Assembly: GCA_964587725.1 (NCBI GenBank)
Contig: CAZPLO010000001.1
Location: 32,001 to 96,000 of the forward strand
DNA from: an uncultured archaeon
Lineage (GTDB): Archaea > Altiarchaeota > Altiarchaeia > IMC4 > SCGC-AAA252-I15
Length of the DNA: 64,000 nt
Reading direction: 5' to 3'
A program made the position numbers and the translations under genes. The stretch's first letter is position 1. Each line of letters starts with the position of its first letter. Below the pieces are notes generated by a model. The model was not told the origin of the DNA and ran no database searches. It worked only from the letters and a program-made list of their open reading frames with translations. Shown piece after piece: positions 4,031 through 63,071 of the stretch.

Positions 4031-4071
4031 TTAGACCACCTATATATTGTTCAGTGGATAATATAAGGAGG

Positions 4072-7994: not shown

Positions 7995-7995
7995 G

Positions 7996-9648: not shown

Positions 9649-9649
9649 C

Positions 9650-10378: not shown

Positions 10379-10409
10379 CCTGCGTTACAGTATTTGTAAA
10401 GGGTATATA

Positions 10410-14560: not shown

Positions 14561-14594
14561 AGTTTTTATTACTGCACAGTAATGGTTTAGTAGG

Positions 14595-18239: not shown

Positions 18240-18309
18240 AATAAAACCCCCCTTAGAACGTTAGATATTGAATGTTTTATTAAAATAACCGGGATTTAAT
18301 ACATTACCT

Positions 18310-31212: not shown

Positions 31213-32160
31213 ATGCTCATGGACCGCAGAGCACAAGCGAGTATAGAGTTCATGGTGGTGGTGGGCGTAGTGCTGATGGTGTTCATCATACTCGGGTACG
31301 TCGTCTACAGGAATTTCGTGAAAAGCAATGACCTGAAGATACACATAGACGGCACCCGGGTGGCCAACCACGTGGCCGACAGCATCAACACAGTCAACGT
31401 CCTCGGCGACGGCTACAGCACCACCTCCATGGTCCCTGGCACACTCTACGGAGGCCGCCCGTACACCGTCAACTTCTACGAGAACGAGTCCGCAGTGTAT
31501 TTGATGGGGAGCGGGTTCTCAACAGGCAGCGAACTCACCTTCAGCAGCCCGTTGTATACGAGCCAGATAGAATGCCTGCTCCCCGGTTGCGCCTCGGGAT
31601 GCAACCAGACCGGCGGGGAACAGTGCCTGCAGGTCAACGACTCCATGACTGTGAAGCTGACGGGGTGGGGTGGAAGTGTGTACTTGAGCCCGAAGTTCAA
31701 CGTGGAACAGCAGAGCTTGAGGGGGGATGTAGTGTCTTATACCTCATACCAGGACCCCGACCCCTTCGCGGCCGAAGGCTTCGTATTGGGCGAGGAAGTG
31801 AACTGGAACGTGATGTATGTACATGAGAACGTCGACGACGGCTCGTTGAGCCTGGTGTTCAGCCTTAACCTGTCGGGGGAGGGGTTTAGGGCCGACGTCG
31901 AGGAGGTCTTGGGGGAGCGGGTGGAGTTCGGGTCGAACGATGACTTGGACGAATTCAACATGGACGTCGTGCCAGGAGCCGACGAGGGCCGGTGGAGTTC
32001 CGGCGGAGGGGACGTCGACGGAGGCTACGTGAAATACGCCGGCGGATTCAGGGTGTGCGTGCAGCCGGAGACCATGCCGTCCGTGGAGTGGAGGTTCCTC
32101 AGCTCCGACGGAAACCACCTGACATTATACGATGAGAGAGTATGCGTAACGTATCCGTGA
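31213..32160 (+). CDS. Pilin-like protein B2 (paralog of A2) with C-terminal extension
   Basis: RA|QASIEFMVVVG; VADSINTV..LGDG. Confidence 0.78.
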   Translation: MLMDRRAQASIEFMVVVGVVLMVFIILGYVVYRNFVKSNDLKIHIDGTRVANHVADSINTVNVLGDGYSTTSMVPGTLYGGRPYTVNFYENESAVYLMGSGFSTGSELTFSSPLYTSQIECLLPGCASGCNQTGGEQCLQVNDSMTVKLTGWGGSVYLSPKFNVEQQSLRGDVVSYTSYQDPDPFAAEGFVLGEEVNWNVMYVHENVDDGSLSLVFSLNLSGEGFRADVEEVLGERVEFGSNDDLDEFNMDVVPGADEGRWSSGGGDVDGGYVKYAGGFRVCVQPETMPSVEWRFLSSDGNHLTLYDERVCVTYP

Positions 32161-32162
32161 CG

Positions 32163-34412: not shown

Positions 34413-34413
34413 C

Positions 34414-36522
34414 ATGAGGTGGCAGCATATTATGGTGGTGGCGGTTCTTGCTTCCGCGGCCGCGGGGCAGCTGTCGATGCAGGTGGACGAGAGCAGCCAG
34501 ACCTCCGGCGGCGGAGAATCCGTGGAATACGGTTTAACGGTCACCAACGATGGAGCCGCCACACTGTGGGTGGACTTCCAGGCAATCGGTTTAAGCGAGG
34601 GTATGTCGGCTGCGATAGTCTACCGGGGGGGTTTCCTGGCTCCAGGAAACTCAAAAAATGCGATGGTGAAGGTGACGTCGGCCCCGTATGTTCCTGTCGG
34701 CTCATATCCCCTGCAGTTGAAGGCGATACCGTCTGAGGGAATCCCTGTTGAAGTATCCGTAACATACAACGTGAACTCCACCCCCGTCACCACCACAACA
34801 CTGTACCCGCCCACAACAACATCTTCAACCACTACGACACAGCCGACGACGTCGACCACAGTACCAACCAACGAAACCAGCACATCAACCAGCACACCAA
34901 GTTCGTCAACAAGTAGCACCTCATCCAGCACCAGCACGGCACCGTCAACCGCCTCAACCAGCTCATCATCAACCACCACGCCAAGTTCAACAAGCACGGC
35001 ACCTTCTACCACAACCAGCACCGAAACACCCACTACAACCACACTACCTCCAACCACCACGACCATAGTCAACATCACCACCACAACCTCCACAACCCAG
35101 CCGACCACCACCACCATACCCTCCTCCCTCGTGGCGGAGGGGACGGTGTACAGCTGCCCCGGCTCCTGCTACGACACCTACTGGTTCGACTCATCCAGCT
35201 TGTGCGGCGGCGCGCAGATAGGGGACTGGGTTGGCTTCTACACCGGCGTGGAAACAGGGAACTGCTATCAGATTGCAGACACGTACTGCGACTACTGCTG
35301 GGACATATACCCGTGCGTGGATTTAGGGGTTCCGGTGAGGATAGCCACGAACGACCAGTTCAAGGTCTGGGGGCTGCAGGCCGACTGCCTTAACACGGTT
35401 CCGTCAACCACGACAACCACCCTGGCGCCGACCACAACGACACTGGCCCCCACAACCACTACAGTCACCAACGCCACAACCACCACACAGGCTCCGACCA
35501 CCACGACCACGCCTTCTGGGCAGATACTCCAGGGCACAGTATACAGCTGCTGGGAAGACTGCGCCAACGCAGACTACATAGACTCAACAGCACTCTGCGG
35601 GCCGGCGCAAACCGGAGACTACATAGGCTTCGCCACCGGACCCTCCGCGGGAACATGCGTTGAAATAATAGACCTGTACTGCGACGGATGCTGGAACATC
35701 GATTTCAACTGCGTCGGATTCCCCACCCCGTTGACCATACAACCAGGAGACACCTTCGAAATATACGCCACACAGACGGAATGCGCAACCAACATGCCAT
35801 CGACCACAACCACAACATCCACGACAACCACCCTGGCGCCGACCACAACCATACCACCAACCACAACCACACGACCAACAGGCATGATACTCCAAGGCAC
35901 AGTATACAGCTGCCCCGAACCATGCGACAACACAGACTACATAGACTCAACAGCACTCTGCGGGCCGGCGCAAACCGGAGACTACATAGGCTTCGCCACC
36001 GGACCCTCCGCGGGAACATGCGTTGAAATAATAGACCTGTACTGCGACGGATGCTGGAACATCGATTTCAACTGCGTCGGATTCCCCACCCCGTTGACCA
36101 TACAACCAGGAGACACCTTCGAAATATACGCCACACAGACGGAATGCGCAACCAACATGCCATCGACCACAACCACAACATCCACGACAACCACCCTGGC
36201 GCCGACCACAACCATACCACCAACCACAACCACACGACCAACAGGCATGATACTCCAAGGCACAGTATACAGCTGCTGGGAAGACTGCGCCAACGCAGAC
36301 TACATAGACAGCCCCAGCCTATGTGGAGGCACCCAGGTAGGAGATTGGGTCGGCTTCTACAACGGCACCGAGGCAGGGAACTGCTACGAAGTAATAGACA
36401 TATACTGTGACTACTGCTGGGGGGACTACCCGTGCATAGGGACCGGCTTGGGAATGCAGCTGACGGAGGGAGACCTCTTCAGGGTGTGGGGGGCGCAGAC
36501 GGAGTGTGTAAACTCGTTCTGA
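34414..36522 (+). CDS. Secreted mucin-like Thr-rich protein with four Cys-rich repeat domains
   Basis: Signal peptide, Ig-like N-domain, Thr/Ser linkers, 4x GTVYSC...LCG...GD..GF...C...YCD.CW. Confidence 0.8.
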   Translation: MRWQHIMVVAVLASAAAGQLSMQVDESSQTSGGGESVEYGLTVTNDGAATLWVDFQAIGLSEGMSAAIVYRGGFLAPGNSKNAMVKVTSAPYVPVGSYPLQLKAIPSEGIPVEVSVTYNVNSTPVTTTTLYPPTTTSSTTTTQPTTSTTVPTNETSTSTSTPSSSTSSTSSSTSTAPSTASTSSSSTTTPSSTSTAPSTTTSTETPTTTTLPPTTTTIVNITTTTSTTQPTTTTIPSSLVAEGTVYSCPGSCYDTYWFDSSSLCGGAQIGDWVGFYTGVETGNCYQIADTYCDYCWDIYPCVDLGVPVRIATNDQFKVWGLQADCLNTVPSTTTTTLAPTTTTLAPTTTTVTNATTTTQAPTTTTTPSGQILQGTVYSCWEDCANADYIDSTALCGPAQTGDYIGFATGPSAGTCVEIIDLYCDGCWNIDFNCVGFPTPLTIQPGDTFEIYATQTECATNMPSTTTTTSTTTTLAPTTTIPPTTTTRPTGMILQGTVYSCPEPCDNTDYIDSTALCGPAQTGDYIGFATGPSAGTCVEIIDLYCDGCWNIDFNCVGFPTPLTIQPGDTFEIYATQTECATNMPSTTTTTSTTTTLAPTTTIPPTTTTRPTGMILQGTVYSCWEDCANADYIDSPSLCGGTQVGDWVGFYNGTEAGNCYEVIDIYCDYCWGDYPCIGTGLGMQLTEGDLFRVWGAQTECVNSF
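35570..36276 (+). repeat. Intragenic direct repeat: 344 bp copies at 35570-35913 and 35933-36276 (period 363 bp = 121 codons)
   Basis: Direct sequence comparison; identical antisense ORFs offset by 363 in the ORF track. Confidence 0.92.
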
Positions 36523-41728: not shown

Positions 41729-41777
41729 TCCCTTTTAATTGGAAATCAATATTATTAACTAGTCGGTTAATAAAAGA

Positions 41778-43502
41778 ATGAATTTCTTAAGACGGCGTGG
41801 GCGCGCGGGGCAGGCGGGTTTGGAGAGCATAATACTCTACGGGGGCGTCATAGTCGTCTTGGCCGTGGGCTTGGTGGTGGTGTGGCAGAGCGGCATCCTC
41901 CGCCCCTTCCTGGGCCTCAAAGGCTACGTGGGATTCAGCCAGGTGGTGCCTGAGGACTGGTCTGTGGGCGTGGACAACGTAGCCTACATGAGTTTGAAGA
42001 ACACCGGCAGCGCGCCGGTCAACATACACGCCCTCGGCGTCGACGTACGTGTTGGGAGGGTACAGTGTGAGCCCTCTCCTCTGGAGGCGGAGGCCGTGCA
42101 GCCTGGAGGCGGAGCCATACTGACGTTCATATGCCCCGGCCCGCCGCCGATAAACGATGAATACGAGGTCGGAGACTACTACGAAGCGGACGTCACCATA
42201 AACTACACCAACCTTGTTTCAAACCGGTTCCACCAGAGCGTGGGCAAACTATACGGTCTCATGGAGGTCGCGGACCTTCCCATCCCAACCACCGTCACCA
42301 CCATGACGGGAACGACGCTGCCGTGCGGATGCTTTGAATGCGAATGCAACAAGTCGGGGGAGATAGATGAGGAAAACTGTGAGAAAATACGGTACGGACA
42401 GAGCTGCGACTACTGCCCGGAGAGACTGGACCTGGACGGCAAGCGGAAGTGCTGGTACAGGGGCAAATGCGGGGACAACTGCAACATCAACAAGGACTGC
42501 GTGGACCGCAACGCCAACTACGGACACCTTAACGTCTGCAGGGACTGCGTGGACGGAAAGTGCAGGGAGAGCTCGCACCCCTGGTATCCATCCTGCGGCC
42601 AGTGCGATTCGGAGGACGCGGGCACACTCTACAGCCCTAAATGCGACGGCGAAGAATGCCCGTACTGCCAGAGGGAGTGGGTGCAGTTGAGCGAGCTCCC
42701 CGGCGAAAGCGAAGGATACTATAGTTACTCCTGCACCACAGGAGACGACTGCGGGGACTCCTGCCTGAACTTCGGAGACGACGTGTACGAGGAGTGCCAG
42801 GTACGGTGCGTGCACTGCAGCGAAACCCCTGGCGGAGAGCCCACCTGCAGCCAGGGAAGCTGCGGGGAACGCTGCAGCGTAACAGACGACCCCACCTGCA
42901 ACAGAGGCTGCCTGTGGTGCAACCTCACAACGTACAAGTGCGAATTGGGAGACTGCGGCAGACCCTGCGTGATAGGGGACGACGCCTGCCAGCTCGGCTG
43001 TGATACTTGCTGGGACGGACGGTGCGTCGACACCGAAGTAGGCGTCACCATAGACGCGCACAACGGCACCGGCGGAGACGTGGTGGCTGAGAACACCACC
43101 ATCCACCTGGACGTCCGCGGAGAATGCGACGACGGAATACACCGGATTCTGGTCAGCAACAGCATACCTCTGCCCCGTGGATTCGACGGCATCACCAGCT
43201 GCAGGGACGTGGCCAACGACCGAAACAGGCTCGGCGCGATAGAGGATCCGTACGGCGACCCCCAGACTGCGGAGTGGATGAACACGTGGAACATAACCTG
43301 GAACGACACATATAGCTGCGGCGGCGTGAGCCCCTGCGCCAACGTGTGGGAGACCAACGAGTCCGAGATAAACGTTTACTGTTATTTCGCATTGGCTCAG
43401 AAGCAGACGCTGTTCGGCGGAGGCAGGTGGAGCATGATAGCGTCCGACTACATCCAGGTAGGGGACATCGACGTCTACCTTGCTTTCCCGCCTCCCTTTT
43501 AG
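41778..43502 (+). CDS. Pilin-like protein C1 with long Cys-rich extension
   Basis: AG|QAGLESIILYGGVIVV; repeated CG..C...C..C units. Confidence 0.75.
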   Translation: MNFLRRRGRAGQAGLESIILYGGVIVVLAVGLVVVWQSGILRPFLGLKGYVGFSQVVPEDWSVGVDNVAYMSLKNTGSAPVNIHALGVDVRVGRVQCEPSPLEAEAVQPGGGAILTFICPGPPPINDEYEVGDYYEADVTINYTNLVSNRFHQSVGKLYGLMEVADLPIPTTVTTMTGTTLPCGCFECECNKSGEIDEENCEKIRYGQSCDYCPERLDLDGKRKCWYRGKCGDNCNINKDCVDRNANYGHLNVCRDCVDGKCRESSHPWYPSCGQCDSEDAGTLYSPKCDGEECPYCQREWVQLSELPGESEGYYSYSCTTGDDCGDSCLNFGDDVYEECQVRCVHCSETPGGEPTCSQGSCGERCSVTDDPTCNRGCLWCNLTTYKCELGDCGRPCVIGDDACQLGCDTCWDGRCVDTEVGVTIDAHNGTGGDVVAENTTIHLDVRGECDDGIHRILVSNSIPLPRGFDGITSCRDVANDRNRLGAIEDPYGDPQTAEWMNTWNITWNDTYSCGGVSPCANVWETNESEINVYCYFALAQKQTLFGGGRWSMIASDYIQVGDIDVYLAFPPPF

Positions 43503-51785: not shown

Positions 51786-52167
51786 CATGTCCAGAGCCGA
51801 CGAAATAACCGGTTACCTCCGGGAACTGAAGGAGGGGAGTGAACACATAGCCGCCTGCATGGTGGCTCGGAAAGGCTTGGAGGGATTGATAATGTTCCCC
51901 CCGGACTTCAAACAAGAGGTCTCCAACATCTGGGAGCCCCTGAGCAGAAACCTCAACGACATGCTCTCCCTGGTGTCCAAGTACAGTGAAGTCGGACTAA
52001 AACGATCCTACACAGAAATGCTTGGTTTCGGCGCCCTGTTCAGCGTGCTCGGAGCCAGCGACACCGCATTGATAGTGTTCCTCAAGGGAGGGGAGCCGCT
52101 GAAGAATGCGGTTCAATTGTCAGACGACATGGAAGAAACAAGGGACAAGATAATGAATTTGGATTAG
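51778..52167 (+). CDS. Roadblock/LC7 (MglB)-like small protein
   Basis: LRELK..SEHIAACMVARKG helix-beta pattern, DTALIVF, C-terminal helix; overlaps KaiC stop. Confidence 0.55.
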   Translation: MNDMSRADEITGYLRELKEGSEHIAACMVARKGLEGLIMFPPDFKQEVSNIWEPLSRNLNDMLSLVSKYSEVGLKRSYTEMLGFGALFSVLGASDTALIVFLKGGEPLKNAVQLSDDMEETRDKIMNLD

Positions 52168-53072
52168 TGTTTCAGCAGCACCACTCTGCTCTCCACCTGT
52201 TCGTCAACCACATCATAGGAGAGTTCATCGGCTATTTCAGATGCGAACGCCTTAACCTCCTCGTGAGAAGGCATATGGTCCATGGTGAGGCGGAGCCTGC
52301 TGCCGCCGACGAACATGTAAGCCTTCACCTCAATGAAATCAGGTTCGGCCTTCGAGATGAGGCGGGCGTAACCCTTAGGGTCCTTCATGTTCAACCCCTT
52401 CACAGAGGTAACCCGCACCACCGTCCTCGTGTCGAGGGAAGGGAACAGCTCCAAGGTCCGGTTGAACCGTTCCCACGAATCCGGCAGCATGGGAAACGCA
52501 GTCCTGAAATAGGTTTCTTTGTCCGGCGCCACGAGCGAAACATACATGTTAGTTGGCAGAGCATCCAGGGACTCGATGCGCTTCGGGAGCGTGCCATTCG
52601 ACACCAGGTAGGTGGTCATTCCATGGCGTTTGAAGCCCTCCAGCAGCCCGCTCAGATGCGGGTAGATGGTGGGTTCCCCTGCGAGGCTCACCGCCACCTG
52701 ATTCGGCTTGCATGCCTCCTCAAACATGCGTTTATCCACGATTACTGAGCCTTTGAAGCCCGATATCGCCTGGCGGTGGGCTTGGAGACATCCTTCTATG
52801 ACCTCCTCCGGCTCCTCCCACTGGACATCATCATGGTCGAGGGTGTATTCGGTGTTCCGCCAGCAGAACAGGCAGCGGTGTGTACACCATCCGACGGCGG
52901 GGGTCATCTGCATGCACCGGTGGCTTTCGATGCCGTAGAACCTCTGCTTGTAGCAGACGCCTTCGCCGCGGAGGCTCTTCTTCAGCCACATGCACGGCTT
53001 CACAGCACTATGGACTCCCACAAGGGCGTAGTGCTGCTTCCGCAGCAGAGCCCTGAATTCAGGGGGCAACAT
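52164..53072 (-). CDS. taw1: 4-demethylwyosine synthase (radical SAM) Taw1/TYW1
   Basis: HSAVKPCMW, CYKQRFYGIESHRC, CTHRCLFCWR, SLAGEPT. Confidence 0.95.
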   Translation of the reverse strand: MLPPEFRALLRKQHYALVGVHSAVKPCMWLKKSLRGEGVCYKQRFYGIESHRCMQMTPAVGWCTHRCLFCWRNTEYTLDHDDVQWEEPEEVIEGCLQAHRQAISGFKGSVIVDKRMFEEACKPNQVAVSLAGEPTIYPHLSGLLEGFKRHGMTTYLVSNGTLPKRIESLDALPTNMYVSLVAPDKETYFRTAFPMLPDSWERFNRTLELFPSLDTRTVVRVTSVKGLNMKDPKGYARLISKAEPDFIEVKAYMFVGGSRLRLTMDHMPSHEEVKAFASEIADELSYDVVDEQVESRVVLLKH

Positions 53073-53132
53073 AGTATTGTTTTTAAAGCTGAATTCTTAA
53101 TAAACTGTAGCAATTCCCTGTGGGGTGAACAC

Positions 53133-53378
53133 ATGGTAACCTATATTATTGCACGGCAGCTCGGTGGAAAACCTGTTATAACCGTCGGCGGAGAGGAATT
53201 AGGCCGCTTGGACGACGTGATCGTCGACGAATCAACCGGAGACTTCATATCCATAATAGTGGAGCCGGTAGCCGAGGCGCCCCCGCGAGTGGCCTACCCG
53301 AAAGACAAGGAAGGCAACTACGTAATCCCCTACGACGCAGTCAACGCCGTCAGCAAGGTGGTCGTAGTCAAGGAGTAG
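53133..53378 (+). CDS. Stand-alone PRC-barrel protein
   Basis: LGGKPVITVGGEELGRLDDVIVDESTG...IPYDAVNAV. Confidence 0.85.
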   Translation: MVTYIIARQLGGKPVITVGGEELGRLDDVIVDESTGDFISIIVEPVAEAPPRVAYPKDKEGNYVIPYDAVNAVSKVVVVKE

Positions 53379-53931
53379 ACTCGTTCTCCCAGTACACACT
53401 GACTCTGGCTTCAGCGGAGTTCACCACATTCCATCCGGAATCCACGACCTCCGCACGCAGTATATGATTTTTCTCTGCGACGCCGGGCAGCACCCGAACC
53501 TGAAACGGCAACACAACGGCCTCTCCAGCTTCCAAATCCACTATAACCGGGTTTTTGCTCTCAACCCTGAACCCGTTGGGCGGCTTAAGCTCGAGCAGGT
53601 ACTCCCTGTCCTCCATGGACCTGAACACCGCATTGACGGTGAACGACTCCCCGTTGCGCACCCGGCCGGAGTGGACCAGCTTAAAACCCTCCGAACCTAT
53701 GCCGCCGTCACAGGAAGTGCATTCGCTGGCCCAGCAGCAGACGGGACAGACGTAGCAGACGTCGGGGCTGGAGCAGGAGCAGTCGCCGCAGCACGCCGGC
53801 GTAGCGCCCAACACAGCATACCCTGAAGGCATGTCAGCCGGAAGCGACATGGACTCATACAGTATGCCAGCGACTGTCAGAACGCCAAGGATGAGCACCG
53901 CATACTCCAGATACTTCAGCTCAGGGTCCAT
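53368..53931 (-). CDS. Membrane-anchored protein with Cys cluster and Ig-like domain
   Basis: N-terminal TM, CCGDCSCSSPDVCYVCPVCCWASECTSC; start re-set to 53931. Confidence 0.65.
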   Translation of the reverse strand: MDPELKYLEYAVLILGVLTVAGILYESMSLPADMPSGYAVLGATPACCGDCSCSSPDVCYVCPVCCWASECTSCDGGIGSEGFKLVHSGRVRNGESFTVNAVFRSMEDREYLLELKPPNGFRVESKNPVIVDLEAGEAVVLPFQVRVLPGVAEKNHILRAEVVDSGWNVVNSAEARVSVYWENESTP

Positions 53932-53986
53932 CCAGTTAATACTGGGCTGTGATGGATTATATATCATTATAAAAACATAAGATAAC

Positions 53987-55234
53987 GTGAAACCCCTCAT
54001 CCTCTGCGTAGACCGCGACGACGACATCGGACGGAACGTCGGCGTCCAAGGGCCAATCGTGGGCCGTGGAGAGAACCTGGACGTGGCCCAGAAGCTCGCG
54101 CTGGCCGACCCGGCCGACACAGATGTCAATGCACTATACGGAGCGTTGAAGCTGGCGGGCGAATTAGACGCGGAAGTCGTTACGTTGACCGGGGACCAGA
54201 ACGTCGGCGTGGTGTCCGACCGGGAGGTAGCCATACAATTGGACGAGGTCATACAGGATCTGAAACCATCCTCCGTTATTTTCGTCTCCGACGGACTGGA
54301 TGACGAGCAGGTGATACCGCTGATACAGTCTCGGGTGAAGATAGACTCCGTGCAGACGATAACGGTGAGACAGAGCAAGGAACTGGAGAAAGCATACTTC
54401 AAGCTAGCCCACTTCATAAAGGAGGTGACGGAGGACCCAAACCTCTCCCGCCTCATATTCGGCGTCCCCGGTCTCGCGCTACTGCTCCTCGCGTTAGGCG
54501 GCGCGCGGGCATTGAGCCTCATAATGGGCGTAGTCGGCGCATACCTTGTCATACGGGGCTTCGGGTGGGAGGAGGAATTCTTCAACAAAACCAGCGAGTT
54601 CCTGAAGTCTCTGTCTGTGGAACGCATCAGCACGGTAGTGTATTTCATAGCGTTCGTCACGTTCGCGCTGGGGATGAGCTACGCCTACGGGGACCTGCAG
54701 AAGAGCGCATTGTCGTTCACCGACTTCAACACCACATTGAACACGCTGGCGCTGTTCATACTGAACAGCAGCAGCGTCAACCTCATCACCTTGACCGTTG
54801 TTACGGTAATAGCGGCGAGGATGGTGGACGACTGGACAGCGAAACGGTTCATACAGGTCCGGCGGTACTTCATACTGGCGGCGTTCATACTGCTCATCCG
54901 CGTCGTCCTGGAGGCCGGCGCACGCTACATGATAAACGAGGACTTCGGGTTCGGCAACTTCATGCTCAACGGCATACTCGGCGTCGTATCCCTCGCCATC
55001 TGGATACGGATGACGGAGTACTTCTTCATACAGGAGATAGAGGTGATAGACCGCATAACCCGTGAAACAGAGGGGAAGGAAGTCTACGACGCCGAAGGCA
55101 AACGCATAGGGAAGGTCAGCAGGGCTGTTGTGGAGGACCTGGAGCTTAAGGATATACGGGTGGGCCGCATAACCATCCCCAAGGACAAGATAGTCTCGGT
55201 GGGGGACACCGTTGTCGTCGAAGCCGAGAAATAG
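53987..55234 (+). CDS. DUF373 membrane protein with C-terminal PRC-barrel
   Basis: LCVDRDDDIG, DPADTDVN, VSDGLDDE, VRQS; C-terminal GKEVYDAEGKRIGKV...IPKDKIVSVGDTVVV. Confidence 0.82.
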   Translation: MKPLILCVDRDDDIGRNVGVQGPIVGRGENLDVAQKLALADPADTDVNALYGALKLAGELDAEVVTLTGDQNVGVVSDREVAIQLDEVIQDLKPSSVIFVSDGLDDEQVIPLIQSRVKIDSVQTITVRQSKELEKAYFKLAHFIKEVTEDPNLSRLIFGVPGLALLLLALGGARALSLIMGVVGAYLVIRGFGWEEEFFNKTSEFLKSLSVERISTVVYFIAFVTFALGMSYAYGDLQKSALSFTDFNTTLNTLALFILNSSSVNLITLTVVTVIAARMVDDWTAKRFIQVRRYFILAAFILLIRVVLEAGARYMINEDFGFGNFMLNGILGVVSLAIWIRMTEYFFIQEIEVIDRITRETEGKEVYDAEGKRIGKVSRAVVEDLELKDIRVGRITIPKDKIVSVGDTVVVEAEK

Positions 55235-55268
55235 TGACTTATATTGTTATCCTTCGGTAACCTATACA

Positions 55269-56585
55269 ATGGCAGTTGAAAGAAAGAAACATCCCACAGA
55301 ACCCGTGAAAACCCCCGAGGAACTCAGCCACGAAAAACTGCTTAAAGAATACCAGGAACTCTCCGGCGCCATGGAGAGGATGAAGGGGGTGTTCAGGAGG
55401 AGCAGGGAGCAGACACACATGCAGGCCGCGGGACGGATGGAGGCAGAACAAAAAGCCCTCATAGACCCCCTGACCGGGTTATACAACAAAAGATTTCTCT
55501 TGGGCGGGGAGGGCGTGGACGGGGAACTCTACAAGGCGGTGTCGCTGGCGTGGCGGGAACACCGGCCGGTTTCACTGGCGGTGATAGACATCGACCACTT
55601 CAAACAGGTGAACGACAACCTCGGCCACGACATAGGGGATGAGGCGTTGAAGAAGGTGGCGGACATAATCAGGAAGACCGTTCGTTCCTCAGACTTCGAG
55701 GTCCGCTTCGGCGGCGAAGAATTCGTGGTCGTGCTGCCGAACACGGACACGGGCGGGGCTAAGGCGTTCGGGGAGAAGCTCAGGAAGACGGTTGATGAGG
55801 AAGACTTCAGATTCAAAGGAACAGACGTCGACGCCAACCAGCCCGGGAACAGGCTGACCGTCAGCGTGGGAGTAGCTTCATACCCCCCGTACCAGAAAAT
55901 CTACGGGATAGGCGCCCACAGTAAACGCGACTTCGAGGCGTACAAGCTGGGCGTCGCAGAAGATTTGTTCAAGGACGCCGACAACGCCCTCTACCAGTCC
56001 AAGAAGAAGGGGAGGAACCGGGTGTCCGTGGCAGGCAACCACAACGCCGAAGTAGCCAGGGTGTCGGGGATGCTAGCCACCGAGATGGGGTTGAGCAAAG
56101 AGGACGTTAAAACCATCCGGGAAGCCGCCGTACTACACGACGTCGGCAAACTGCTGATTCCATGGAGCATACTCCACAAGCAGGGGAAACTTACGGAGGA
56201 GGAATACGAGGAGATGATGAAACATCCCGTCAGAGGCGCCAAGCTGCTGGAGGCTCAGGAGAGGGTTGATCAGAAGCCGAAGGTCATAAACACCGACCCG
56301 GATAAGGTGATACCGTATGTGAAGCACCACCATGAACGGTGGGACGGCAGCGGATACCCCGACGGCATTAAAGGGGAGGATATACCCTTGGGGGCTCGGA
56401 TAATAGCCGTCGCCGACGCCTATGAAGCCATGACCTCCTACGACTCCGAGAGAAGCTACAACGGCGACAAACGCGTGGACCGGGCTTTGAAGGAGCTTCG
56501 ATTAGGATCGGGCAACCAGTTCGACCCTACAGTGGTCAACGCCTTCATGCGACTGGCTGAGAACGGCAGGATCAAATCGCCTTAA
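55269..56585 (+). CDS. Diguanylate cyclase (GGEEF) / HD-GYP phosphodiesterase fusion
   Basis: DPLTGLYN, DIDHFKQVND..GHDIGD, RSSD-FEVRF-GGEEF, ADNALYQSK..GRN; LHDVGK, HHERWDGSGYPDG, AVADAYEAM. Confidence 0.93.
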   Translation: MAVERKKHPTEPVKTPEELSHEKLLKEYQELSGAMERMKGVFRRSREQTHMQAAGRMEAEQKALIDPLTGLYNKRFLLGGEGVDGELYKAVSLAWREHRPVSLAVIDIDHFKQVNDNLGHDIGDEALKKVADIIRKTVRSSDFEVRFGGEEFVVVLPNTDTGGAKAFGEKLRKTVDEEDFRFKGTDVDANQPGNRLTVSVGVASYPPYQKIYGIGAHSKRDFEAYKLGVAEDLFKDADNALYQSKKKGRNRVSVAGNHNAEVARVSGMLATEMGLSKEDVKTIREAAVLHDVGKLLIPWSILHKQGKLTEEEYEEMMKHPVRGAKLLEAQERVDQKPKVINTDPDKVIPYVKHHHERWDGSGYPDGIKGEDIPLGARIIAVADAYEAMTSYDSERSYNGDKRVDRALKELRLGSGNQFDPTVVNAFMRLAENGRIKSP

Positions 56586-57202
56586 CTGCAGCAGATTTTC
56601 TCCAGCTTCTGTATGGAATCCTTGCCACCTATCACTATGAGCGTGTCGCCCTCCTTCACAACCGTGTTTTTACCTGGGTTGTATATCCATCCGCCACCAC
56701 GTTTCACCGCCCGGACATAGCAGCCGGTCTCGCTGAACAGCCGGTATTCGCCCAGAGTCTTACCAGTCAACGCAGACCCCTTATTAACCACCATCTTAAC
56801 CACCTGCTCCTCCGCCTCGTCCATGAGGCTCTGGTACACGGGGTGGTCGCCGACACCACGTATGACCACGTCGACTATGTCGTTTGCGGCGTCGGATATG
56901 CGCTCCGCGGACCTTGCAACATGCATTATGCCTGTGAGGTCTGCGGCCTCCTCCGGGTTCCTTGCAGCCAGCATACAGAGTATCTCTATCTCGTACTGGA
57001 GGTTGTCCATCAATTCCTCCAAGTCCTCCACCTCCTCGGCGATGGCGGTGCTGTTTGTCAGCAGCGCCGAATAAGCCAGGTCTATAATCAGCTCGGAGGT
57101 GTCCTTCATCTCCACCAGTATGTCCTTCACGTTCCGCCGCTTCTGCAGCGCGCCCTCGGCTATCTCATCCAGTTCTATGTCTTCCTCAACCATTTGGTTC
57201 AA
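56582..57202 (-). CDS. PhoU-like + TrkA-C (RCK_C) domain protein
   Basis: EMKDTSELIIDLAYSA, ERISDAA, GDTLIVIG. Confidence 0.85.
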   Translation of the reverse strand: MNQMVEEDIELDEIAEGALQKRRNVKDILVEMKDTSELIIDLAYSALLTNSTAIAEEVEDLEELMDNLQYEIEILCMLAARNPEEAADLTGIMHVARSAERISDAANDIVDVVIRGVGDHPVYQSLMDEAEEQVVKMVVNKGSALTGKTLGEYRLFSETGCYVRAVKRGGGWIYNPGKNTVVKEGDTLIVIGGKDSIQKLEKICCS

Positions 57203-57230
57203 CCCGTGTCATTTTATGAAAATTCCATGA

Positions 57231-57800
57231 TTAAATACCCGCCACCACCCGAATGCTAACCAGCAGACACAACACCGTAATAATGTCCCCCACCGTAGCC
57301 AGCGACGGAGCCAAAACGTTGTCGGGGTCGTATCCGCGGGAGTACGTTAGGAGCGCCAGAGACACCGTCAACCCGGACAGCAGCATGCCGGCGAAAGTGC
57401 CCGCCAGCAGAGCAATCAGGGTTAAATCAAATATGCTGGCTGGGGCCTTGTCTGCGAACCCGGTGAAGGAGTATGCAAAATACGCCGCCACACCGGAGAA
57501 AAAGGACATGATGGTGTTGAGGATGAGGGAGGCTAGTAAGTTTTCGGAAAGCGTCTGGTTCCACTTCAGCTCCGGTTGAATCAAACCCAGGTGGAGGGCG
57601 GACGCGATTCGGGAACCCAGAGCACCGCTTATGTTGCCGCGCATGCCCAACACCGCAGGCAACAGGATGAGAACCCCCGGCACGTCGGTCAACTCCGTCT
57701 TCAGCGACTCCAGCATCAACCCCGCCACCACACCGCCCAATGCACACAACATGAATATGGGTATGCTCTGCTTCAGTATACTCTTCGCCATGGCGGGCAT
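57231..57800 (-). CDS. MgtE integral membrane domain protein
   Basis: GMRGNISGALGSR, DPDNV..P..TVGD. Confidence 0.88.
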   Translation of the reverse strand: MPAMAKSILKQSIPIFMLCALGGVVAGLMLESLKTELTDVPGVLILLPAVLGMRGNISGALGSRIASALHLGLIQPELKWNQTLSENLLASLILNTIMSFFSGVAAYFAYSFTGFADKAPASIFDLTLIALLAGTFAGMLLSGLTVSLALLTYSRGYDPDNVLAPSLATVGDIITVLCLLVSIRVVAGI

Positions 57801-57830
57801 AACAATATATAAGACACATATAATAAGAAG

Positions 57831-58253
57831 ATGAGGTCCAGAAGGGTTGAATCAACAGGGGAATACGTTTGCAGGCTCACGCACGACGCCGACGGACTGG
57901 AGGATATAAAAACTTTCGCGGCGGAGAACAACATAACGTCGGGTGTGTTCACGCTCATAGGCGCGGTGCAGTCCGCTTCCATAGGATACTACGACCAGAA
58001 CGAGCATGTGTACCGGAAGCGGCAAATCAACGAGGCTTTGGAGATTGTGTCCTGCACAGGAAACATATGCTTGAAAGACGGCGAAGCGTTCGTCCACGCC
58101 CACGCCGTCCTCGCATACGAAGACGGCAGCACGGTGGGAGGACACCTCACTGCGATGAAGGTATTCGCGGGGGAAATGCACCTGAAGGCTTTCGAGAAAC
58201 CTGTGGAGAGGGTGCCGGACGACGAGACAAGCCTCAGCCTAATGAACCTGTAA
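57831..58253 (+). CDS. PPC/DUF296 domain protein
   Basis: IGAV, EIVSCTGNI, HAHAVL, GGHL. Confidence 0.9.
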   Translation: MRSRRVESTGEYVCRLTHDADGLEDIKTFAAENNITSGVFTLIGAVQSASIGYYDQNEHVYRKRQINEALEIVSCTGNICLKDGEAFVHAHAVLAYEDGSTVGGHLTAMKVFAGEMHLKAFEKPVERVPDDETSLSLMNL

Positions 58254-59138
58254 TATGGATAGGAATATCATCTCCAGCAGGCTGCCGAAGTAGATGGTAG
58301 CTAATAGGCTGAGGAACAGTATGGGAGCGAACTTCACACCCCACTTGATTTCCATCGTCTCCGGCAGCTTACCCGCCGCCGAAAACTCCCGTATCCTGGC
58401 CAGCTGCTCGGGAGTAACACCCTCGATATTCCTCTTAGAGGCTATCTTGACCCCGTCAACCACGACGTCCTCTGCGACGATGTCCCATTCCCTCATATCC
58501 GACACCCTAACGGTCTTCCGCAATACTGTGTTCTCCACGGTCTTCATATACACGGAAGCCATGACAAGAAGAGGCACCAGCAGGTATATGAGGGACAAAG
58601 TGCTGAAGCCGAAGTACAGGGCTATCAAGAGTGGGGTGAAACTCAATAGCAGAGCCAGCATCACCTTGCGCTCGCGAAGGTTGTTCGAGAACGCGGTGAA
58701 CGCATGCGGCTTCATAAACCCCAATACGAGAGTGTACAGTATCACATACGGCGTGGACAACACAGCCATGTTTATAAAATAGGTAAATCCAGGAGGTATG
58801 GGGTGGGTGACGAATGAACTCAGCGGCCACACATACCCCGTAGAGTCCAGGTAGCCTATGAGGCAGCCGACACCCGCCAGCAGTTTCACGTCGCCGCCGC
58901 CCCACTGGCCGAGCACGAACAATGCGTAGCCGACCGCCAGCATGACAGCCCCCATGTACGCAGACCGGAGTATGTGGTGTATGTTGCCATCCGATACCGT
59001 GTGAACCAACGCCAGCAACAGCAGTAAAGCCGCCAATCCGACGCTACATATTTCAGGTATCTCGCTTGTTTTGAGGTCCTCTATACTGGCCCATAGAAGA
59101 GCGACGAGCGACAACCCTATGGCGACGGCAGGTAACAT
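58239..59138 (-). CDS. Prepilin/prearchaellin peptidase (A24, FlaK/PibD/EppA family)
   Basis: EDLKTSEIP, WGGGDVKLL, KFAPILF; multi-TM. Confidence 0.88.
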   Translation of the reverse strand: MLPAVAIGLSLVALLWASIEDLKTSEIPEICSVGLAALLLLLALVHTVSDGNIHHILRSAYMGAVMLAVGYALFVLGQWGGGDVKLLAGVGCLIGYLDSTGYVWPLSSFVTHPIPPGFTYFINMAVLSTPYVILYTLVLGFMKPHAFTAFSNNLRERKVMLALLLSFTPLLIALYFGFSTLSLIYLLVPLLVMASVYMKTVENTVLRKTVRVSDMREWDIVAEDVVVDGVKIASKRNIEGVTPEQLARIREFSAAGKLPETMEIKWGVKFAPILFLSLLATIYFGSLLEMIFLSILQVH

Positions 59139-59263
59139 CTCAACAGAATATTTGAGCCCCAGCGAATATAAACAATATTTTAAAAATAGTTTGGAATAAA
59201 GTATAAACTATTGATAAAGCCGTCACACCTGGCTTTTTAAGCCAGGTTTTCCTATTCTGTTCC

Positions 59264-59740
59264 ATGAGGAGCGCAACCCTAGTTATTTTTATCCTTCTGA
59301 CTTCAACAGCGTCCGCACAGACTGGAATCTGCTTCCTCGACGCGCTGATAAACGGCCTCGACACATTGGTTGACGCGTACTCGAACCTGCTGAACCCCAC
59401 AACCACGACAACCACGACAACAAGTACAACCACCACAACCACCACGACCACGACAACCACGACGGTCTCTTACACAACAACCACCAGCACAACCACCACG
59501 ACCACGACAACAACCATTTCAACCGGCGAGTGCATCAGCAGGGAGGACTGTCCGGAAGACAGCGAAACATACACCTGCAACTTCGCAGGCAACGTGGTCA
59601 GGAGCACCCGCGTATACTTCTGCAGCAACCCCGGCATGCCCGATTCACAGTGCAAGAGCAGGCTCACCACCAGGGAGATAGCCCTCTGCGGAAACGATGA
59701 AATATGCGTGGAAGGCGAACCCAAATGCGTCCCAGAATAA
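59264..59740 (+). CDS. Small secreted Thr-rich/Cys-rich protein
   Basis: Signal peptide, poly-Thr, ECISREDC...C..GEPKC. Confidence 0.7.
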   Translation: MRSATLVIFILLTSTASAQTGICFLDALINGLDTLVDAYSNLLNPTTTTTTTTSTTTTTTTTTTTTTVSYTTTTSTTTTTTTTTISTGECISREDCPEDSETYTCNFAGNVVRSTRVYFCSNPGMPDSQCKSRLTTREIALCGNDEICVEGEPKCVPE

Positions 59741-60114
59741 GTAGATTAAATGGATTCTGGCGCCCACAAGCCAAAACCCCCAGTAGGAGCACATTGTTTA
59801 GTTACATAGTCGTGTTGCACTAGCATACATATTGCGTGTGGGCGGTTTGGTTGATTAAAAGCATACTCGTATTGACGTTGTTTTTGGTTGTGGGGGTTTA
59901 CCTTCACCATGGCTCTCCACGGGCGTAGCCAACGACGGCGAATACCTGTACCCACGCACCGTGGTGTCAAACGCCTATTCCTCTATACTGCCGTCCCTCA
60001 AAAGCAGGCACGTGTGCCCCAGAACCGGGAAACACTGCTACTACAACGACCACCTCGGATGCGAACACTTCCAGGGCCTCGAAAACAACAGGGTAGTGTG
60101 CTCATACCTGGAGC

Positions 60115-60432
60115 ATGGAACAGGCTCAACGCCTCAGCTCAGGGGGGAACGGGAAATTAAGCACCGAAATAGACCAGCTCGCCTCCCTCATACACAAGCA
60201 CATGAAAGTCGTATTCGACCTTAAGCTGGTGAAACATTTGAACAGCAAACCAGCAAGAATATATCAGCACCTGAAGTGCCTGGAGAAATACAAGTTCATA
60301 CAGATGGGGATGGACCCCGTCTACGGCGTAACAGTAGAATGGAAGGACGAGTCGGACCTCATATCCAACGGCTACAGCCAGTCCTCCATAAAAAACGAAC
60401 TCTCCAACAGGGGCAGAATAAGGCTGTCATAA
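60115..60432 (+). CDS. Hypothetical protein, possibly winged-helix or a gene fragment
   Basis: Coding-like codons; LVKHLNSKPARIYQHLKCLEKYKFI. Confidence 0.35.
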   Translation: MEQAQRLSSGGNGKLSTEIDQLASLIHKHMKVVFDLKLVKHLNSKPARIYQHLKCLEKYKFIQMGMDPVYGVTVEWKDESDLISNGYSQSSIKNELSNRGRIRLS

Positions 60433-60832
60433 CCTGGACCTCGCTTCTTCGGCGGCCACCGGCCTAGCCACACTGCTCCTAATAGGAACGTATTATCTGA
60501 CTTTCGTGGATGTTATGGCTGCTGGCCCTCCAGAAAAGCCGTCCGCATACGTTGAAACCATGGAGACAGTGGAATCCACGTCAACAACGGTTAGGACAAG
60601 GGATGCTGAGAGACGGACTGTGGAAGACAACTTCGACGGGTCTAACGAAGACGTGAACGTGGACGAGGGGGCGGCGGCGTACGTAACCACCACAGTACCC
60701 AAAGGGGTTGAGAGTAATCCTGTCAAAGAGCATGTGGACGGGTTTCAGCTGCCTGCTTCGGTGGGGTTCATAGTGTTGGGTGCATTAGTTCTATTGATAG
60801 TGGGTGACGCGGTGAGGGTTTCCAGGGGAGTG

Positions 60833-60855
60833 AAAAAAAAAAAAAAAAAGAAAAG
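60833..60855 (-). terminator. Oligo-T terminator downstream of thermosome gene
   Basis: A17 run plus GAAAAG on + strand (T-tract on -), just after the stop at 60869. Confidence 0.55.
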
Positions 60856-60868
60856 AGGGAATGGACGG

Positions 60869-62521
60869 TTACATCATGTCCATTCCGCCCATGCCGCCGG
60901 GCGGCATACCGCCACCTGGGGGCATGCCGCCGCCCCTGGGCTTGCTGGATGCGATGACATCGTCTATGCGGAGTATCATCTCCGCAGCCTCGCCCGCGGA
61001 CTTGATGGCCTGGGTCTTAATCTTCAACGGCTCGATGATGCCCTTGACCCACAGGTCGGCTATCTTCGCCTTGTCCACGTAGACGCCCACCTTGGAGCCG
61101 TCCTTCTCCTCGTGCTTGGCCCGCATCTTCACCAAGGCGTCGATGGCGTCCATTCCCGCGCTCTCGGCGAGCGTCCTGGGGATTATCTCCATGGCGTCGG
61201 CGAACGCGTTAACAGCCAGCTGCTCGCGGCCTCCCACGGTGTCGGCGTATTTCCTCAGCTTCTGCGCCACCTCAATCTCGGGCGCGCCTCCGCCGGGGAC
61301 CACGTAGCCTACCTCAACCGCGGCCGCTACGCCGCCGAGGGCGTCGTTGACTGCCCTTTCAACTTCGTCGACGACGTGTTCCGTGCCGCCTCGTATCAGG
61401 AAGCTCACCGCCTTAGGGTTCTTGCACCCGCGGACGAACACCATCTCGTCCCCGGATATCTTCAGCTCCTCGACCACCTTCGCGGAACCGAGATCCGACT
61501 TGGTCAGGTCCTTGATGCTGGTGAGGACCCGTGCGCCGGTGGCCTTCGACAGCTTGTCCATGTCCGACTTCTTAACCCTGCGCACAGCAAATACTCCGGC
61601 CTTGCTGAGGAAGTGCTGTGCGAGGTCGTCGATGCCCTTCTGGCAGAACACCACGTTGGCGCCGCTCTTCACTACCTCGTCTACCATGTCCTTCAGCATG
61701 GATTCCTCCTGCTGGACGAACGCCTGCAGCTGCTCAGGACTGGTTATGCTTATCTCGGCATCGGTTTCGGTCTCCTTCACTTCTATGGCGACGTCGAGCA
61801 ACGCAATCTTAGCGTTCTCAACGCTCCTGGGCATCCCACTGTGGACGCGCTCCTTGTCTATGATAACACCCTCGATGAGTTCGCTGTCCTGCGTGGAAGC
61901 GCCCTGCTTCTTCTCCACCTGCACGTTGTCCAGGTCAACCACGAGCTTACCGTCTTCTTTTTCAGCCACCTGGCGGATGGCCTTGACGGAGAGCTTGGCC
62001 AGCATGTCCTTGCTCGCCTCCGCACCCTTCCCGGTCATGGCGGTGACCGCTATCTCCTCAAGAAGCTTCGTATCCTCCACCGTCACCTTCACAGCCATGT
62101 CGTTGAGTATGTCCTGCGCCTTCGCAGCAGCCATGCGGTATCCGAGGGCTATGATGGTGGGGTGGATGCTCTGGTCCAGCAGGTCCTCCGCCTTAGCCAG
62201 GAACTCGCCGGTCAACACCACCGCGGTGGTGGTTCCGTCTCCCACTTCGTCATCCTGGGTCTTGGCCACTTCGATGACCATCTTCGCCGCAGGATGCTCC
62301 ACATTCATCTCGTCGACGATAGTGGCGCCGTCGTTGGTTATGACGATGTCGCCCAGGTCGTCCACAAGCATCTTGTCCATTCCACGAGGCCCCAGAGTGC
62401 TTCTGACAGCCTCGGCAACAGCCTTGGCCGCCATAATGTTGTTCCTCTGGGCGTCTCTTCCTGTCGTCCTCAAAGCCCCTTCGGGCAGTATAATCACTTG
62501 TTGTCCTTGTGCCATTTTCAT
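60869..62521 (-). CDS. thsA: Thermosome (group II chaperonin) subunit
   Basis: [33 protein letters not shown] tail. Confidence 0.97.
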
Positions 62522-62612
62522 ACATCACCTGTTTTTATCCTCATAAAAAATCAGGAATATGTTATTGGTTTGTTTGTATATAAAAATGTGTGGGAAACGA
62601 TGGGTTTGGCTG

Positions 62613-63071
62613 TTACTCTATGCTCACCTGCCTGCCGGCGGGGCCCTCCTCCACACGCTTCAACGTGACCTCCAGGACCCCGTTGTTGTATTTGGCCACC
62701 GCAGACTCCGGAACCACCCTGCATGAGAGTTTCACGTCCTTGCTGTACTTCCTGAAAGGCGTGTCCACGCTTATGAACACGCTCTCCACGCTGGAACGCA
62801 GGTCGATGTCCTCTTTCTCGACGCCCGGCAGCTCCACAATCACCGACACCGAATCAAACTTCTCTATCACGTCCGTCACCGGCTCCATGTAGCCTGCGAC
62901 GCCGTAGGGGCTGACGTTGCCGAACTCCTCCAGCAGCGGGCTGCCGTCGCGGCCGAAACGCAGGGTGAACCCATAGACGTAAGGGCCGCCGAAGCCTGGC
63001 CTCCCAGCCACGGCCTTGGCTTCCTCGAACATCTGCCTCACCCGTGAGTGGAAGCTTCCGTAGTCCATCAT
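62613..63071 (-). CDS. hsp20: Archaeal small heat shock protein Hsp20
   Basis: GPYVYGF, EEFGNV, ELPGVEKEDI, YNNGVLEV. Confidence 0.92.
   Translation of the reverse strand: MMDYGSFHSRVRQMFEEAKAVAGRPGFGGPYVYGFTLRFGRDGSPLLEEFGNVSPYGVAGYMEPVTDVIEKFDSVSVIVELPGVEKEDIDLRSSVESVFISVDTPFRKYSKDVKLSCRVVPESAVAKYNNGVLEVTLKRVEEGPAGRQVSIE

Follow-up and report, generated by a model that had tools for sequence, protein, structure and literature searches.

Are the GGDEF and HD-GYP genes that appear in archaeal metagenome-assembled genomes (MAGs) real, and what could such a gene do in its host? The first of these questions was previously open, and both are raised by a gene in a 64,000-nucleotide (nt) stretch of an Altiarchaeota genome, G000. 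This whole stretch, which corresponds to positions 32001–96000 of contig C1, is called the window here, and all positions are counted within it. The gene encodes a protein of 438 amino acids (aa) in which a GGDEF domain is followed by an HD-GYP domain, and the initial annotation of the window described it as an intact synthase and hydrolase of cyclic di-GMP (c-di-GMP). We favor, with a probability of about 0.65, the reading that it encodes a compact, sensor-less, bifunctional enzyme of cyclic-dinucleotide turnover and that it represents an old bacterial acquisition in the Altiarchaeota chromosome. The gene itself is intact and is a genuine archaeal chromosomal gene, neither a chimera nor a contaminant, and the locus is a clean positive case from Altiarchaeota.

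Galperin and Chou (preprint 2021) counted 70 archaeal HD-GYP open reading frames (ORFs) and suspected potential contamination; a REC-PAS-PocR-GGDEF-HD-GYP protein of Methanocella arvoryzae was, in their account, long the single archaeal exception. Sidorov et al. (Mol Microbiol, Sept 2026, PMC13725321) reported that GGDEF proteins of archaea can act as diguanylate cyclases, among them proteins from MAGs and, after linker mutations, the Methanocella GGDEF-HD-GYP protein. Their contigs were validated by flanking genes only, and co-occurring phosphodiesterases and receptors, as well as the origin of the genes, were left as questions. Together, these two studies make outdated the statement in the initial annotation that c-di-GMP is absent or very rare in Archaea. 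No paper was found that ties Altiarchaeota to GGDEF or c-di-GMP; the supplements of both key papers (20 MAG proteins; Table S4) may list such a protein. The main text of Sidorov et al. contains 0 mentions of "Altiarchae", and PMC9938205, retrieved with Altiarchae* and "diguanylate", deals in the part consulted with cyclases of ultra-small prokaryotes generally, not with Altiarchaeota.

The gene resides in an altiarchaeal chromosome

The gene is a single ORF on the + strand that can open at a TTG (55212) or at the ATG at 55269 and that ends at 56585. The ATG is common to the ortholog in a second genome, G003 (MAVERKK in G000, MAIEEKR in G003), and the coordinates first assigned to the gene are therefore right. 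In contig C1, which is 253,456 nt long, the gene starts at base 87,269; the G000 assembly comprises 1.56 Mb in 48 contigs and is 92.15% complete with 0.95% contamination. The neighboring genes encode a radical-SAM enzyme of wyosine synthesis, a DUF373 protein, a PCC-domain protein, and a prepilin peptidase with an archaeal Arc_PepC domain, and the best named matches of the DUF373 protein are all from Candidatus Altiarchaeales, Altiarchaeota, or Altiarchaeia (70–44% identity); the phylum name used here is taken from these matches. The archaeal neighborhood described at the outset is thus confirmed, as is the overlap between the stop of the gene and that of the convergent PhoU/TrkA_C gene, which amounts to 4 nt.

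The composition of the gene is that of its host. Its GC content is 0.570 vs 0.568 for the genome, and its tetranucleotide distance to the genome is 0.0211 vs a median of 0.0225; among 2,303 windows of equal size it ranks at the 32nd percentile. ATA makes up 11 of the 18 Ile codons in the gene (499 of 873 in the ORFs of the window) and AGG 11 of the 30 Arg codons (310 of 1149), where the reference is a greedy longest-ORF set that includes a few shadow ORFs. GC3 and a window-based codon index of the gene also match the window, and the codon counts agree with the initial observation that AGG and ATA are used as in the neighboring genes.

Contigs assembled per run in Logan bridge both gene junctions in 4 of 4 DNA runs, with no indel or joint in the stretch examined (52000–60000). 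Runs X1 and X2 each yield one 14,956-nt contig, X4 yields a 6,892-nt contig over 53975–60000 that represents a strain variant with 6 single-nucleotide polymorphisms (SNPs), and X3 yields two contigs that overlap inside the gene, with each junction bridged. Two SNPs lie inside the gene (T15N and P207Q), both off the conserved motifs. The four runs belong to one microbial-mat study that may be the source of the MAG, so they exclude a mis-join and do not represent an independent population; the runs listed as carrying the stretch include none of RNA. A bacterial contaminant or a chimeric stretch in the MAG would be another explanation: Galperin and Chou considered contamination for archaeal MAG HD-GYP ORFs, and an assembly in 48 contigs leaves some room for it. 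However, the gene sits inside a 253-kb contig between archaeal genes, its junctions are bridged in every run including the 6-SNP variant, its tetranucleotide profile is typical of the host, and another genus shows the same gene order in a genome that was assembled independently; we regard this explanation as having next to no chance, and the chimeric assembly of which the initial annotation had warned is not borne out. Synteny, shared derived indels, host-like composition, and bridged junctions together indicate that the gene was resident before the two genera diverged.

Orthologs and history of the gene

The comparison set consisted of 61 species genomes of the phylum, 21 of which belong to the family of the window (f1). 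PF00990 was found in 11 of them: 7 of the 21 f1 genomes (including G000), 4 of 8 genomes of family f9, and none of the 32 that represent the other seven families. The only full-length ortholog in the family is that of G003 (genus g3; 443 aa, E 1e-108), which is 46% identical to the G000 protein in the genome search and 45% identical in the alignment. The other f1 matches to the G000 protein are GGDEF-only in G009 and HD-GYP-only in G014 (205 aa) and G011 (408 aa).

The locus has a backbone that consists of the wyosine gene, DUF373, a slot, the PCC gene, and the prepilin peptidase gene. DUF373 is present in 18 of the 21 family genomes, and the G003 ortholog lies directly downstream of it. The content of the slot (55235–57830 in the window) varies across the family: it holds the GGDEF-HD-GYP gene together with TrkA_C/PhoU and MgtE genes in G000, the GGDEF-HD-GYP gene alone in G003, and TrkA_C/PhoU and MgtE genes without GGDEF in G001, G018, and G005; it is empty in nine genomes, and its content is unresolved in three. 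In G001, which is of the same genus as G000, about 20 nt separate the end of the DUF373 match from that of the TrkA_C/PhoU match, a gap that shows the gene to be absent at the exact site.

The proteins of G000 and G003 have in common an N-terminal helix, a loop of 31 or 32 residues, a second longer loop, and a domain junction of 8 or 9 residues. In a GGDEF tree of 53 rows (8 archaeal sequences and the 45 best-scoring of 210 others), the two are sisters with an ultrafast bootstrap (UFBoot) of 98 and an SH-aLRT of 91; the tree names no donor phylum, and 28 of its 50 inner branches are open. In a DUF373 tree, a single-gene proxy for the species tree that was made with a quick method, G003 is sister to a g1+g4 clade, and on this topology vertical descent calls for a single gain and a minimum of two losses (in G001 and in g4).

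An exhaustive search of representative sequences returned only two further full-length relatives in a single stretch, P0241 (431 aa, 42% identity) and P0247 (474 aa, 42% identity), both of which carry the N-terminus of the clade, the GGDEF insertion, and the short junction. With a profile of these four members, P0247 scores 699 bits and the protein ranked after it 296 bits, which marks out a small and sharply bounded clade. Beyond lies a radiation of bacterial-type fusions, with 11,494 representatives at E ≤ 1e-30, all of which are bacterial where a source is named, and no relative outside the clade exceeds 42% identity to the G000 protein. A metagenome scan with the clade alignment and with generic GGDEF and HD-GYP motifs gave no further ortholog loci among the matches listed (best 36% identity), and a scan of genome contigs with the single protein, from which the window's own records were excluded, gave only bacterial relatives, whose best segments are no more than 42% identical.

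From the shared indels, the synteny, the 45% identical ortholog, and the absence in a sister species, the gene looks like one that came from Bacteria before the split between g1 and g3, was remodeled, and was then patchily lost, rather than like contamination or a recent transfer. After such a gain, three lineage-specific indels would have arisen, and the gene would have been retained in few lineages and lost from others, including the sister species. A recent bacterial transfer that left a functionless passenger would account for the exclusively bacterial names of the relatives outside the clade, for the sister species without the gene, and for the variable slot behind DUF373. We nevertheless give it little credence: the composition is fully host-like, the closest relative is a syntenic ortholog in another archaeal genus with shared derived indels and only 45% identity, no bacterial relative rises above 42%, and the catalytic residues are conserved over the divergence between G000 and G003. 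Ancient archaeal inheritance, with c-di-GMP signaling that dates to before LUCA (the last universal common ancestor) or to the early Archaea, appears comparably improbable. It would explain why GGDEF genes occupy conserved loci in two families (7 of 21 genomes in f1, 4 of 8 in f9), and Sidorov et al. (PMC13725321) argue that an ancient origin is possible; yet the phylum's GGDEF domains are not united in a single group in the tree, where the f1 clade, G009, and the f9 group stand apart, all 32 genomes of the other seven families lack GGDEF, and the clade nests in the vast bacterial GGDEF-HD-GYP radiation.

The slot gene of G009 (L003/L008, G009:C16 ~4906–5417) was considered as a third ortholog and may be either a diverged ortholog or a separate insertion. 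It is a GAF-GGDEF gene split over two frames (ORFs of 372 aa and 75 aa) with no HD-GYP domain, in a 71%-complete MAG, and it is either a pseudogene or an assembly error. Its GGDEF domain falls apart from G000 and G003 in the tree (nearest P0017, 51%) and joins them in 1% of bootstrap trees; in the approximately unbiased (AU) test, one clade with G000 and G003 is not rejected (p 0.224).

Other proteins with one of the two domains were seen elsewhere in the phylum. In further f1 genera, L012 (G014:C128; 205 aa) is approximately an HD-GYP domain alone, with no strong GGDEF partner, and L013 (G011:C10; 408 aa) is an HD-GYP protein whose N-terminal half is unassigned and whose specificity motif is a canonical RPYR. 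Family f9, of the same class, has a second, unrelated set of GGDEF-only proteins of 253–302 aa with RxxD and GGDEF or GGEEF motifs (L096–L099, in G057, G055, G056, and G059). In 4 of 4 loci these genes lie between the gene of a transporter membrane protein and a ribose-5-phosphate-isomerase-like gene, with an ABC-ATPase-like ORF at three loci and a ribosomal-protein-S13-like ORF at three loci as further flanks (names from translations), and three of the four f9 GGDEF domains group together with 100% support, away from the G000/G003 clade. A family of proteins with weak GGDEF matches (E 2e-7 to 3e-15; 434–548 aa) comprises L004 (G011), L005 (G006), L006 (G012), and L007 (G001). Its members keep GGDEF or GGDEM and carry a large insertion; in the aligned G011 member the equivalents of the guanine-binding Asn and Asp are replaced, and in the other three the usual ND and GHxxGD motifs were not seen by eye. 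The family occurs in the sister species G001, and tblastn found none in G000; these are possibly degenerate GGDEF proteins.

Domains, predicted activities, and messenger context

The GGDEF domain is recognized by Pfam PF00990 (E 9.9e-38, residues 63–209, 129.9 bits vs a cut-off of 23.8) and by NCBIfam TIGR00254 (E 4.2e-45, residues 60–254, 153.5 bits vs 37.4). The motifs DIDHFKQVND, GHDIGD, RSSD, and GGEEF are all present in the translation, as the initial annotation had it. In the phmmer alignment with WspR (3bre), RSSD-FEVRF-GGEEF stands opposite RSSD-LAARY-GGEEF without gaps, and the RxxD spacing of five residues, noted earlier as canonical, equals RSSDLAARYGGEEF of WspR. The Arg of this inhibitory site is kept in 197 and the Asp in 196 of 210 other relatives. 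The catalytic and binding columns, each conserved in at least 66% of the 210 relatives, are canonical throughout in G000 and G003. They were taken from the alignment and are the equivalents of D327, D329, K332, N335, D344, R366, GGEEF, K442, and R446 in the residue numbering of PleD. The position reported as Ser in GGDEF domains that make cyclic GMP-AMP (cGAMP) is Asp in G000 and G003. These alignments support the notion that the domain keeps every residue needed for diguanylate cyclase activity.

The domain differs from its relatives in two loops. The first has 31 residues in G000 and 32 in G003, compared with 9–19 in 210 of 210 other relatives; the insertion, present also in P0241 and P0247, lengthens the last helix to residues 219–246 in the structural model. 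The second has 17 residues in G000 and G003, where other relatives have a mode of 10. The N-terminal helix is conserved in the G003 ortholog, and the G000 protein has no sensor domain.

The AlphaFold2 (AF2) model (46-row alignment; mean predicted local distance difference test, pLDDT, 89.3; predicted template modeling score, pTM, 0.76) folds into one long helix (residues 21–63), followed by the GGDEF domain and directly thereafter by the HD-GYP core. Foldseek matches in the PDB include WspR (E ~1e-14), DgcB, the binuclear PA4781 (3.4e-12), and PmGH, with template modeling (TM) scores of 0.85–0.89 on isolated GGDEF domains. The N-terminal helix together with the GGDEF domain matches a GCN4-zipper-WspR fusion (3i5c) and the coiled-coil-GGDEF protein DgcB (6ttr). 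A homodimer prediction with two full-length copies scored 0.10 vs a mark of 0.42 and counts neither for nor against dimerization.

The HD-GYP domain is matched by Pfam HD_5 (PF13487, the HD-GYP model; E 2.3e-36, residues 254–422, 125.5 bits vs a cut-off of 27.2) over profile positions 13–170 only, and the same protein has a Pfam HD match at 2.8e-21. Agreement with two curated domain models at E < 1e-35, together with a confident structural model, goes far beyond what chance would give. Structure-database phmmer matches are PmGH (4mcw, 1.6e-28), V-cGAP3 (5z7c, 1.2e-25), and PA4781 (4r8z, 2.5e-23). The ligands of a two-metal site are all present (H258, H290, D291, H319, H354, H355, and D383), as is the GYP at 362–364, in line with the HD pair (H290 D291), the HHERWDGSGYP motif (354–364), and the distal Asp (D383) that had been pointed out from the sequence. 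The KPG motif, which makes main-chain contacts to the second base, reads KQG, and the Pro column differs from one relative to another (P 53, K 40, R 12). The near-linkerless fusion that the initial annotation recognized in GRNRVSVAGNH is also real: 8 residues separate the Arg of GRN from the first metal-binding His (9 in G003), compared with 41–66 in 44 of 44 other GGDEF-HD-GYP fusions, which are a subset of 119 database matches chosen for compact architecture.

From the residue conservation and the fold, the following mode of action can be proposed for a bifunctional enzyme. Two copies would dimerize by way of the N-terminal helix, pairing being required of every diguanylate cyclase. Each GGDEF domain would bind one GTP, the pair would condense both to c-di-GMP, and product bound at the RxxD site would feed back to inhibit synthesis. 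The fused two-metal HD-GYP domain would hydrolyze the cyclic dinucleotide, with the linear dinucleotide as the probable main product, and its substrate preference may be relaxed or shifted to 3'3'-cGAMP because the specificity lysine or arginine is replaced.

Several observations weigh against this reading, and some of them concern the HD-GYP domain. The RxY[K/R] motif, described by Galperin and Chou as "largely responsible for specificity for c-di-GMP", lacks its basic residue and reads RSYN in G000, RDYA in G003, RGYS in P0241, and RGYN in P0247. In 129 other relatives the column of N398 contains no Asn (R 101, Q 11, H 7, K 4, A 3, S 2, C 1). In the same source, RxxN and RxxQ variants are shifted to cGAMP, and c-di-GMP is still hydrolyzed by an RxxS enzyme. 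The equivalent of E185, the third-metal ligand of PmGH, is V254 in G000 and Ala in G003 (Y 80 and D 4 among the 129 relatives), by which the domain is assigned from its sequence to the binuclear subgroup. About 40 residues of the N-terminal part of the HD-GYP domain, present in all 44 compared fusions, are absent, and their loss could mean that activity is impaired or changed. The other points concern the clade and the genome. The GGDEF motif is degenerate in P0247 (SGDEF), and the first metal-binding His is missing from P0241; selection on catalysis is thus not uniform across the clade. The gene is dispensable, since G001 of the same genus lacks it at the exact site. A quick-method HD-GYP tree of 42 rows is unresolved, gives no donor, and does not by itself place G000 with G003. 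In the genome, EAL, PilZ, and MshEN domains (E ≤ 0.1), YajQ/DUF520, and c-di-GMP-I and -II riboswitches (E ≤ 1) were all searched for and none was found, which leaves no downstream pathway in sight; these and the other genome-wide absences hold for the 92.15%-complete G000 with the models and thresholds used. Of the initial description as an intact synthase and hydrolase, the GGDEF residues and the HD-GYP metal ligands stand, and c-di-GMP-specific hydrolysis is less certain with RSYN in place of RxY[K/R].

The same features lend themselves to a protein with only one activity in vivo, either a cyclic-dinucleotide phosphodiesterase with a regulatory GGDEF domain that senses GTP or product, or a cyclase with a crippled HD-GYP domain. 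As a phosphodiesterase, it would act on c-di-GMP or 3'3'-cGAMP, perhaps taken up from bacterial neighbors in the mat. RSYN, the reported cGAMP shift of RxxN variants, the match to the cGAMP-specific V-cGAP3, the missing N-terminal segment, and the lack of a visible receptor in G000 are all compatible with this, and the wild-type GGDEF-HD-GYP protein of Methanocella gave only phosphodiesterase phenotypes, with cyclase activity after linker mutations, in the work of Sidorov et al. (PMC13725321). Against it, the GGDEF active site and the inhibitory site are canonical in G000, G003, and P0241, which is unexpected for a purely regulatory domain; the position that marks cGAMP makers is Asp and not Ser; and no other cyclic-dinucleotide synthase was found in G000. 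The DAC model for c-di-AMP synthase, which matches 11 of 14 control genomes, including M. jannaschii, H. volcanii, and M. acetivorans, gave none, and the sole SMODS match, examined as a possible CD-NTase, is the CCA-adding enzyme. A single activity is a less likely alternative, and we retain the bifunctional enzyme as the favored reading.

The single GGDEF match and the single HD_5 match of G000 both lie in this gene, and the further GGDEF, EAL, PilZ, or MshEN proteins for which the initial annotation proposed a search were not found. The surface machinery that it listed as plausible targets is present in the window: an ArlI-like T2SSE ATPase beside a KaiC/ArlH-like ATPase (7999–10384, −), a second T2SSE ATPase (14583–16331, +), a further KaiC-like ATPase, a T2SSF protein (17535–19287 region), and a PMT_2 glycosyltransferase. 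Nothing connects this machinery to the messenger. The archaellum- and pilus-type ATPases of the window have no detectable MshEN domain, and a pattern for the MshEN motif has no match in G000, also when loosened. A more far-reaching reading is that a small Altiarchaeota lineage domesticated a bacterial c-di-GMP module and rebuilt it, with the linker-less fusion, the 31-residue GGDEF insertion, and the loss of the specificity lysine in HD-GYP, and that its product, c-di-GMP or another cyclic dinucleotide, is read by a new receptor family that controls surface structures such as the archaellum- and pilus-type machines of the window; we hold this to be doubtful, and if it is true, the product would be the organism's only cyclic-dinucleotide messenger.

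Also in the window are large ORFs (555–817 aa) with no Pfam match at E ≤ 1e-3 (32136–36519, 41763–43499, and 60422–62665) or at E ≤ 1e-4 (3796–8042). They adjoin a 1054-aa Laminin_G_3 protein, a 1112-aa PQQ/beta-propeller protein, and an 868-aa beta-helix protein, and they may be surface proteins.

The contributions of this locus are a non-contaminant altiarchaeal member, its residence across genera, the linker-less and sensor-less architecture, the failed specificity motif, and a genome without a recognizable receptor. One fused gene appears to be the whole recognizable cyclic-dinucleotide toolkit of G000, which makes this genome a tractable place for an archaeal receptor search. The kind of gene is already known, and the locus adds one well-documented member and leaves the archaeal c-di-GMP picture unchanged.

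The features of the locus are compiled in Table 1. The TTATAT element hints at an own archaeal promoter with a short or absent leader. Antisense to DUF373 lies a 430-aa ORF (53368–54660, −) with no Pfam match, whose DUF373-overlapping part is a shadow frame. Its C-terminal part (~53368–53986), in which a Cys-rich stretch precedes a beta-rich one, is conserved at 41–55% identity in G001, G013, and G004 and is probably a real small gene that is transcribed divergently from DUF373.

Table 1. Features of the GGDEF-HD-GYP gene and its immediate surroundings (window positions)
Feature	Positions	Strand	Evidence
Stalk-GGDEF-HD-GYP gene, 438 aa, stop codon included	55269..56585	+	ORF, Pfam, NCBIfam, AF2, Foldseek
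N-terminal long helix, residues 21–63, presumed dimerization stalk	55329..55457	+	DSSP on AF2 model, Foldseek, ortholog conservation
GGDEF domain, residues 60–254	55446..56030	+	TIGR00254, PF00990, catalytic columns
RxxD inhibitory-site motif RSSD, R139–D142	55683..55694	+	Aligned to WspR RSSD
Active-site GGEEF, residues 148–152	55710..55724	+	Translation, alignments
Clade-specific GGDEF insertion, residues 206–236 (31 residues)	55884..55976	+	Loop lengths in relatives
HD-GYP domain, residues 254–438	56028..56582	+	HD_5 254–422; structure-database phmmer matches
HHERWDGSGYP, H354–P364	56328..56360	+	Translation, alignments
RSYN, R395–N398, at RxY[K/R] position	56451..56462	+	Aligned to PmGH RPYK
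TATA-like TTATAT, centered ~27 nt before ATG	55239..55244	+	Sequence; AT-rich stretch similarly placed in G003
DUF373 membrane-protein gene, upstream, co-directional, conserved locus anchor	53987..55234	+	PF04123 8.8e-85
PhoU/TrkA_C gene, convergent	56582..57202	−	ORF, Pfam

Comparison with known systems

The bacterial GGDEF-HD-GYP proteins, such as those of Kallotenue papyrolyticum, Armatimonadota, Chloroflexota, and Omnitrophota, are annotated as bifunctional diguanylate cyclase/phosphohydrolase, have the same domain order and catalytic motifs as the G000 protein, and are 31–42% identical to it over the greater part of its length. They differ in a linker of 41–66 residues (44 of 44), in the absence of the 31-residue insertion (210 of 210), and in the PAS, GAF, HAMP, or REC sensor domains that most of them carry; the last position of RxY[K/R] is Arg or Lys in 105 of 129 relatives, whereas it is Asn in G000.

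With respect to the HD-GYP domain, the cGAMP-preferring enzymes (V-cGAP3 and the RxxN/RxxQ proteins Bd2325, Gmet_3476, and Moth_2495 named by Galperin and Chou) share the RxxN at the Gua1-binding position, but they act alongside cGAMP synthases, whereas the GGDEF domain of G000 has the c-di-GMP-type Asp and no CD-NTase was found in this genome. PA4781 (4r8z), like the G000 protein, has no acidic residue at the position of PmGH E185 and a predicted two-metal site (Foldseek TM 0.71 on the target), although it is a REC-HD-GYP protein.

The N-terminal half has its counterparts in WspR (3bre), where a stalk helix leads into a GGDEF domain with the same RSSD-x5-GGEEF spacing (phmmer 2.7e-28, Foldseek 4.5e-14), and in Caulobacter DgcB (6ttr), which also combines a stalk helix with a GGDEF domain and an RxxD inhibitory site (Foldseek TM 0.85). 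In contrast to the G000 protein, neither has a fused HD-GYP domain or an insertion before the last helix, and WspR is under REC control.

The closest parallel in setting is the GGDEF-HD-GYP protein of Methanocella, compared here by its published description: it too is a fusion encoded in an archaeal chromosome, and its genome has no other gene for c-di-GMP turnover. It belongs to another phylum, has 810 aa, and carries three sensor domains, whereas the G000 protein, at 438 aa, has only a helix before its GGDEF domain and almost no linker between its two domains.

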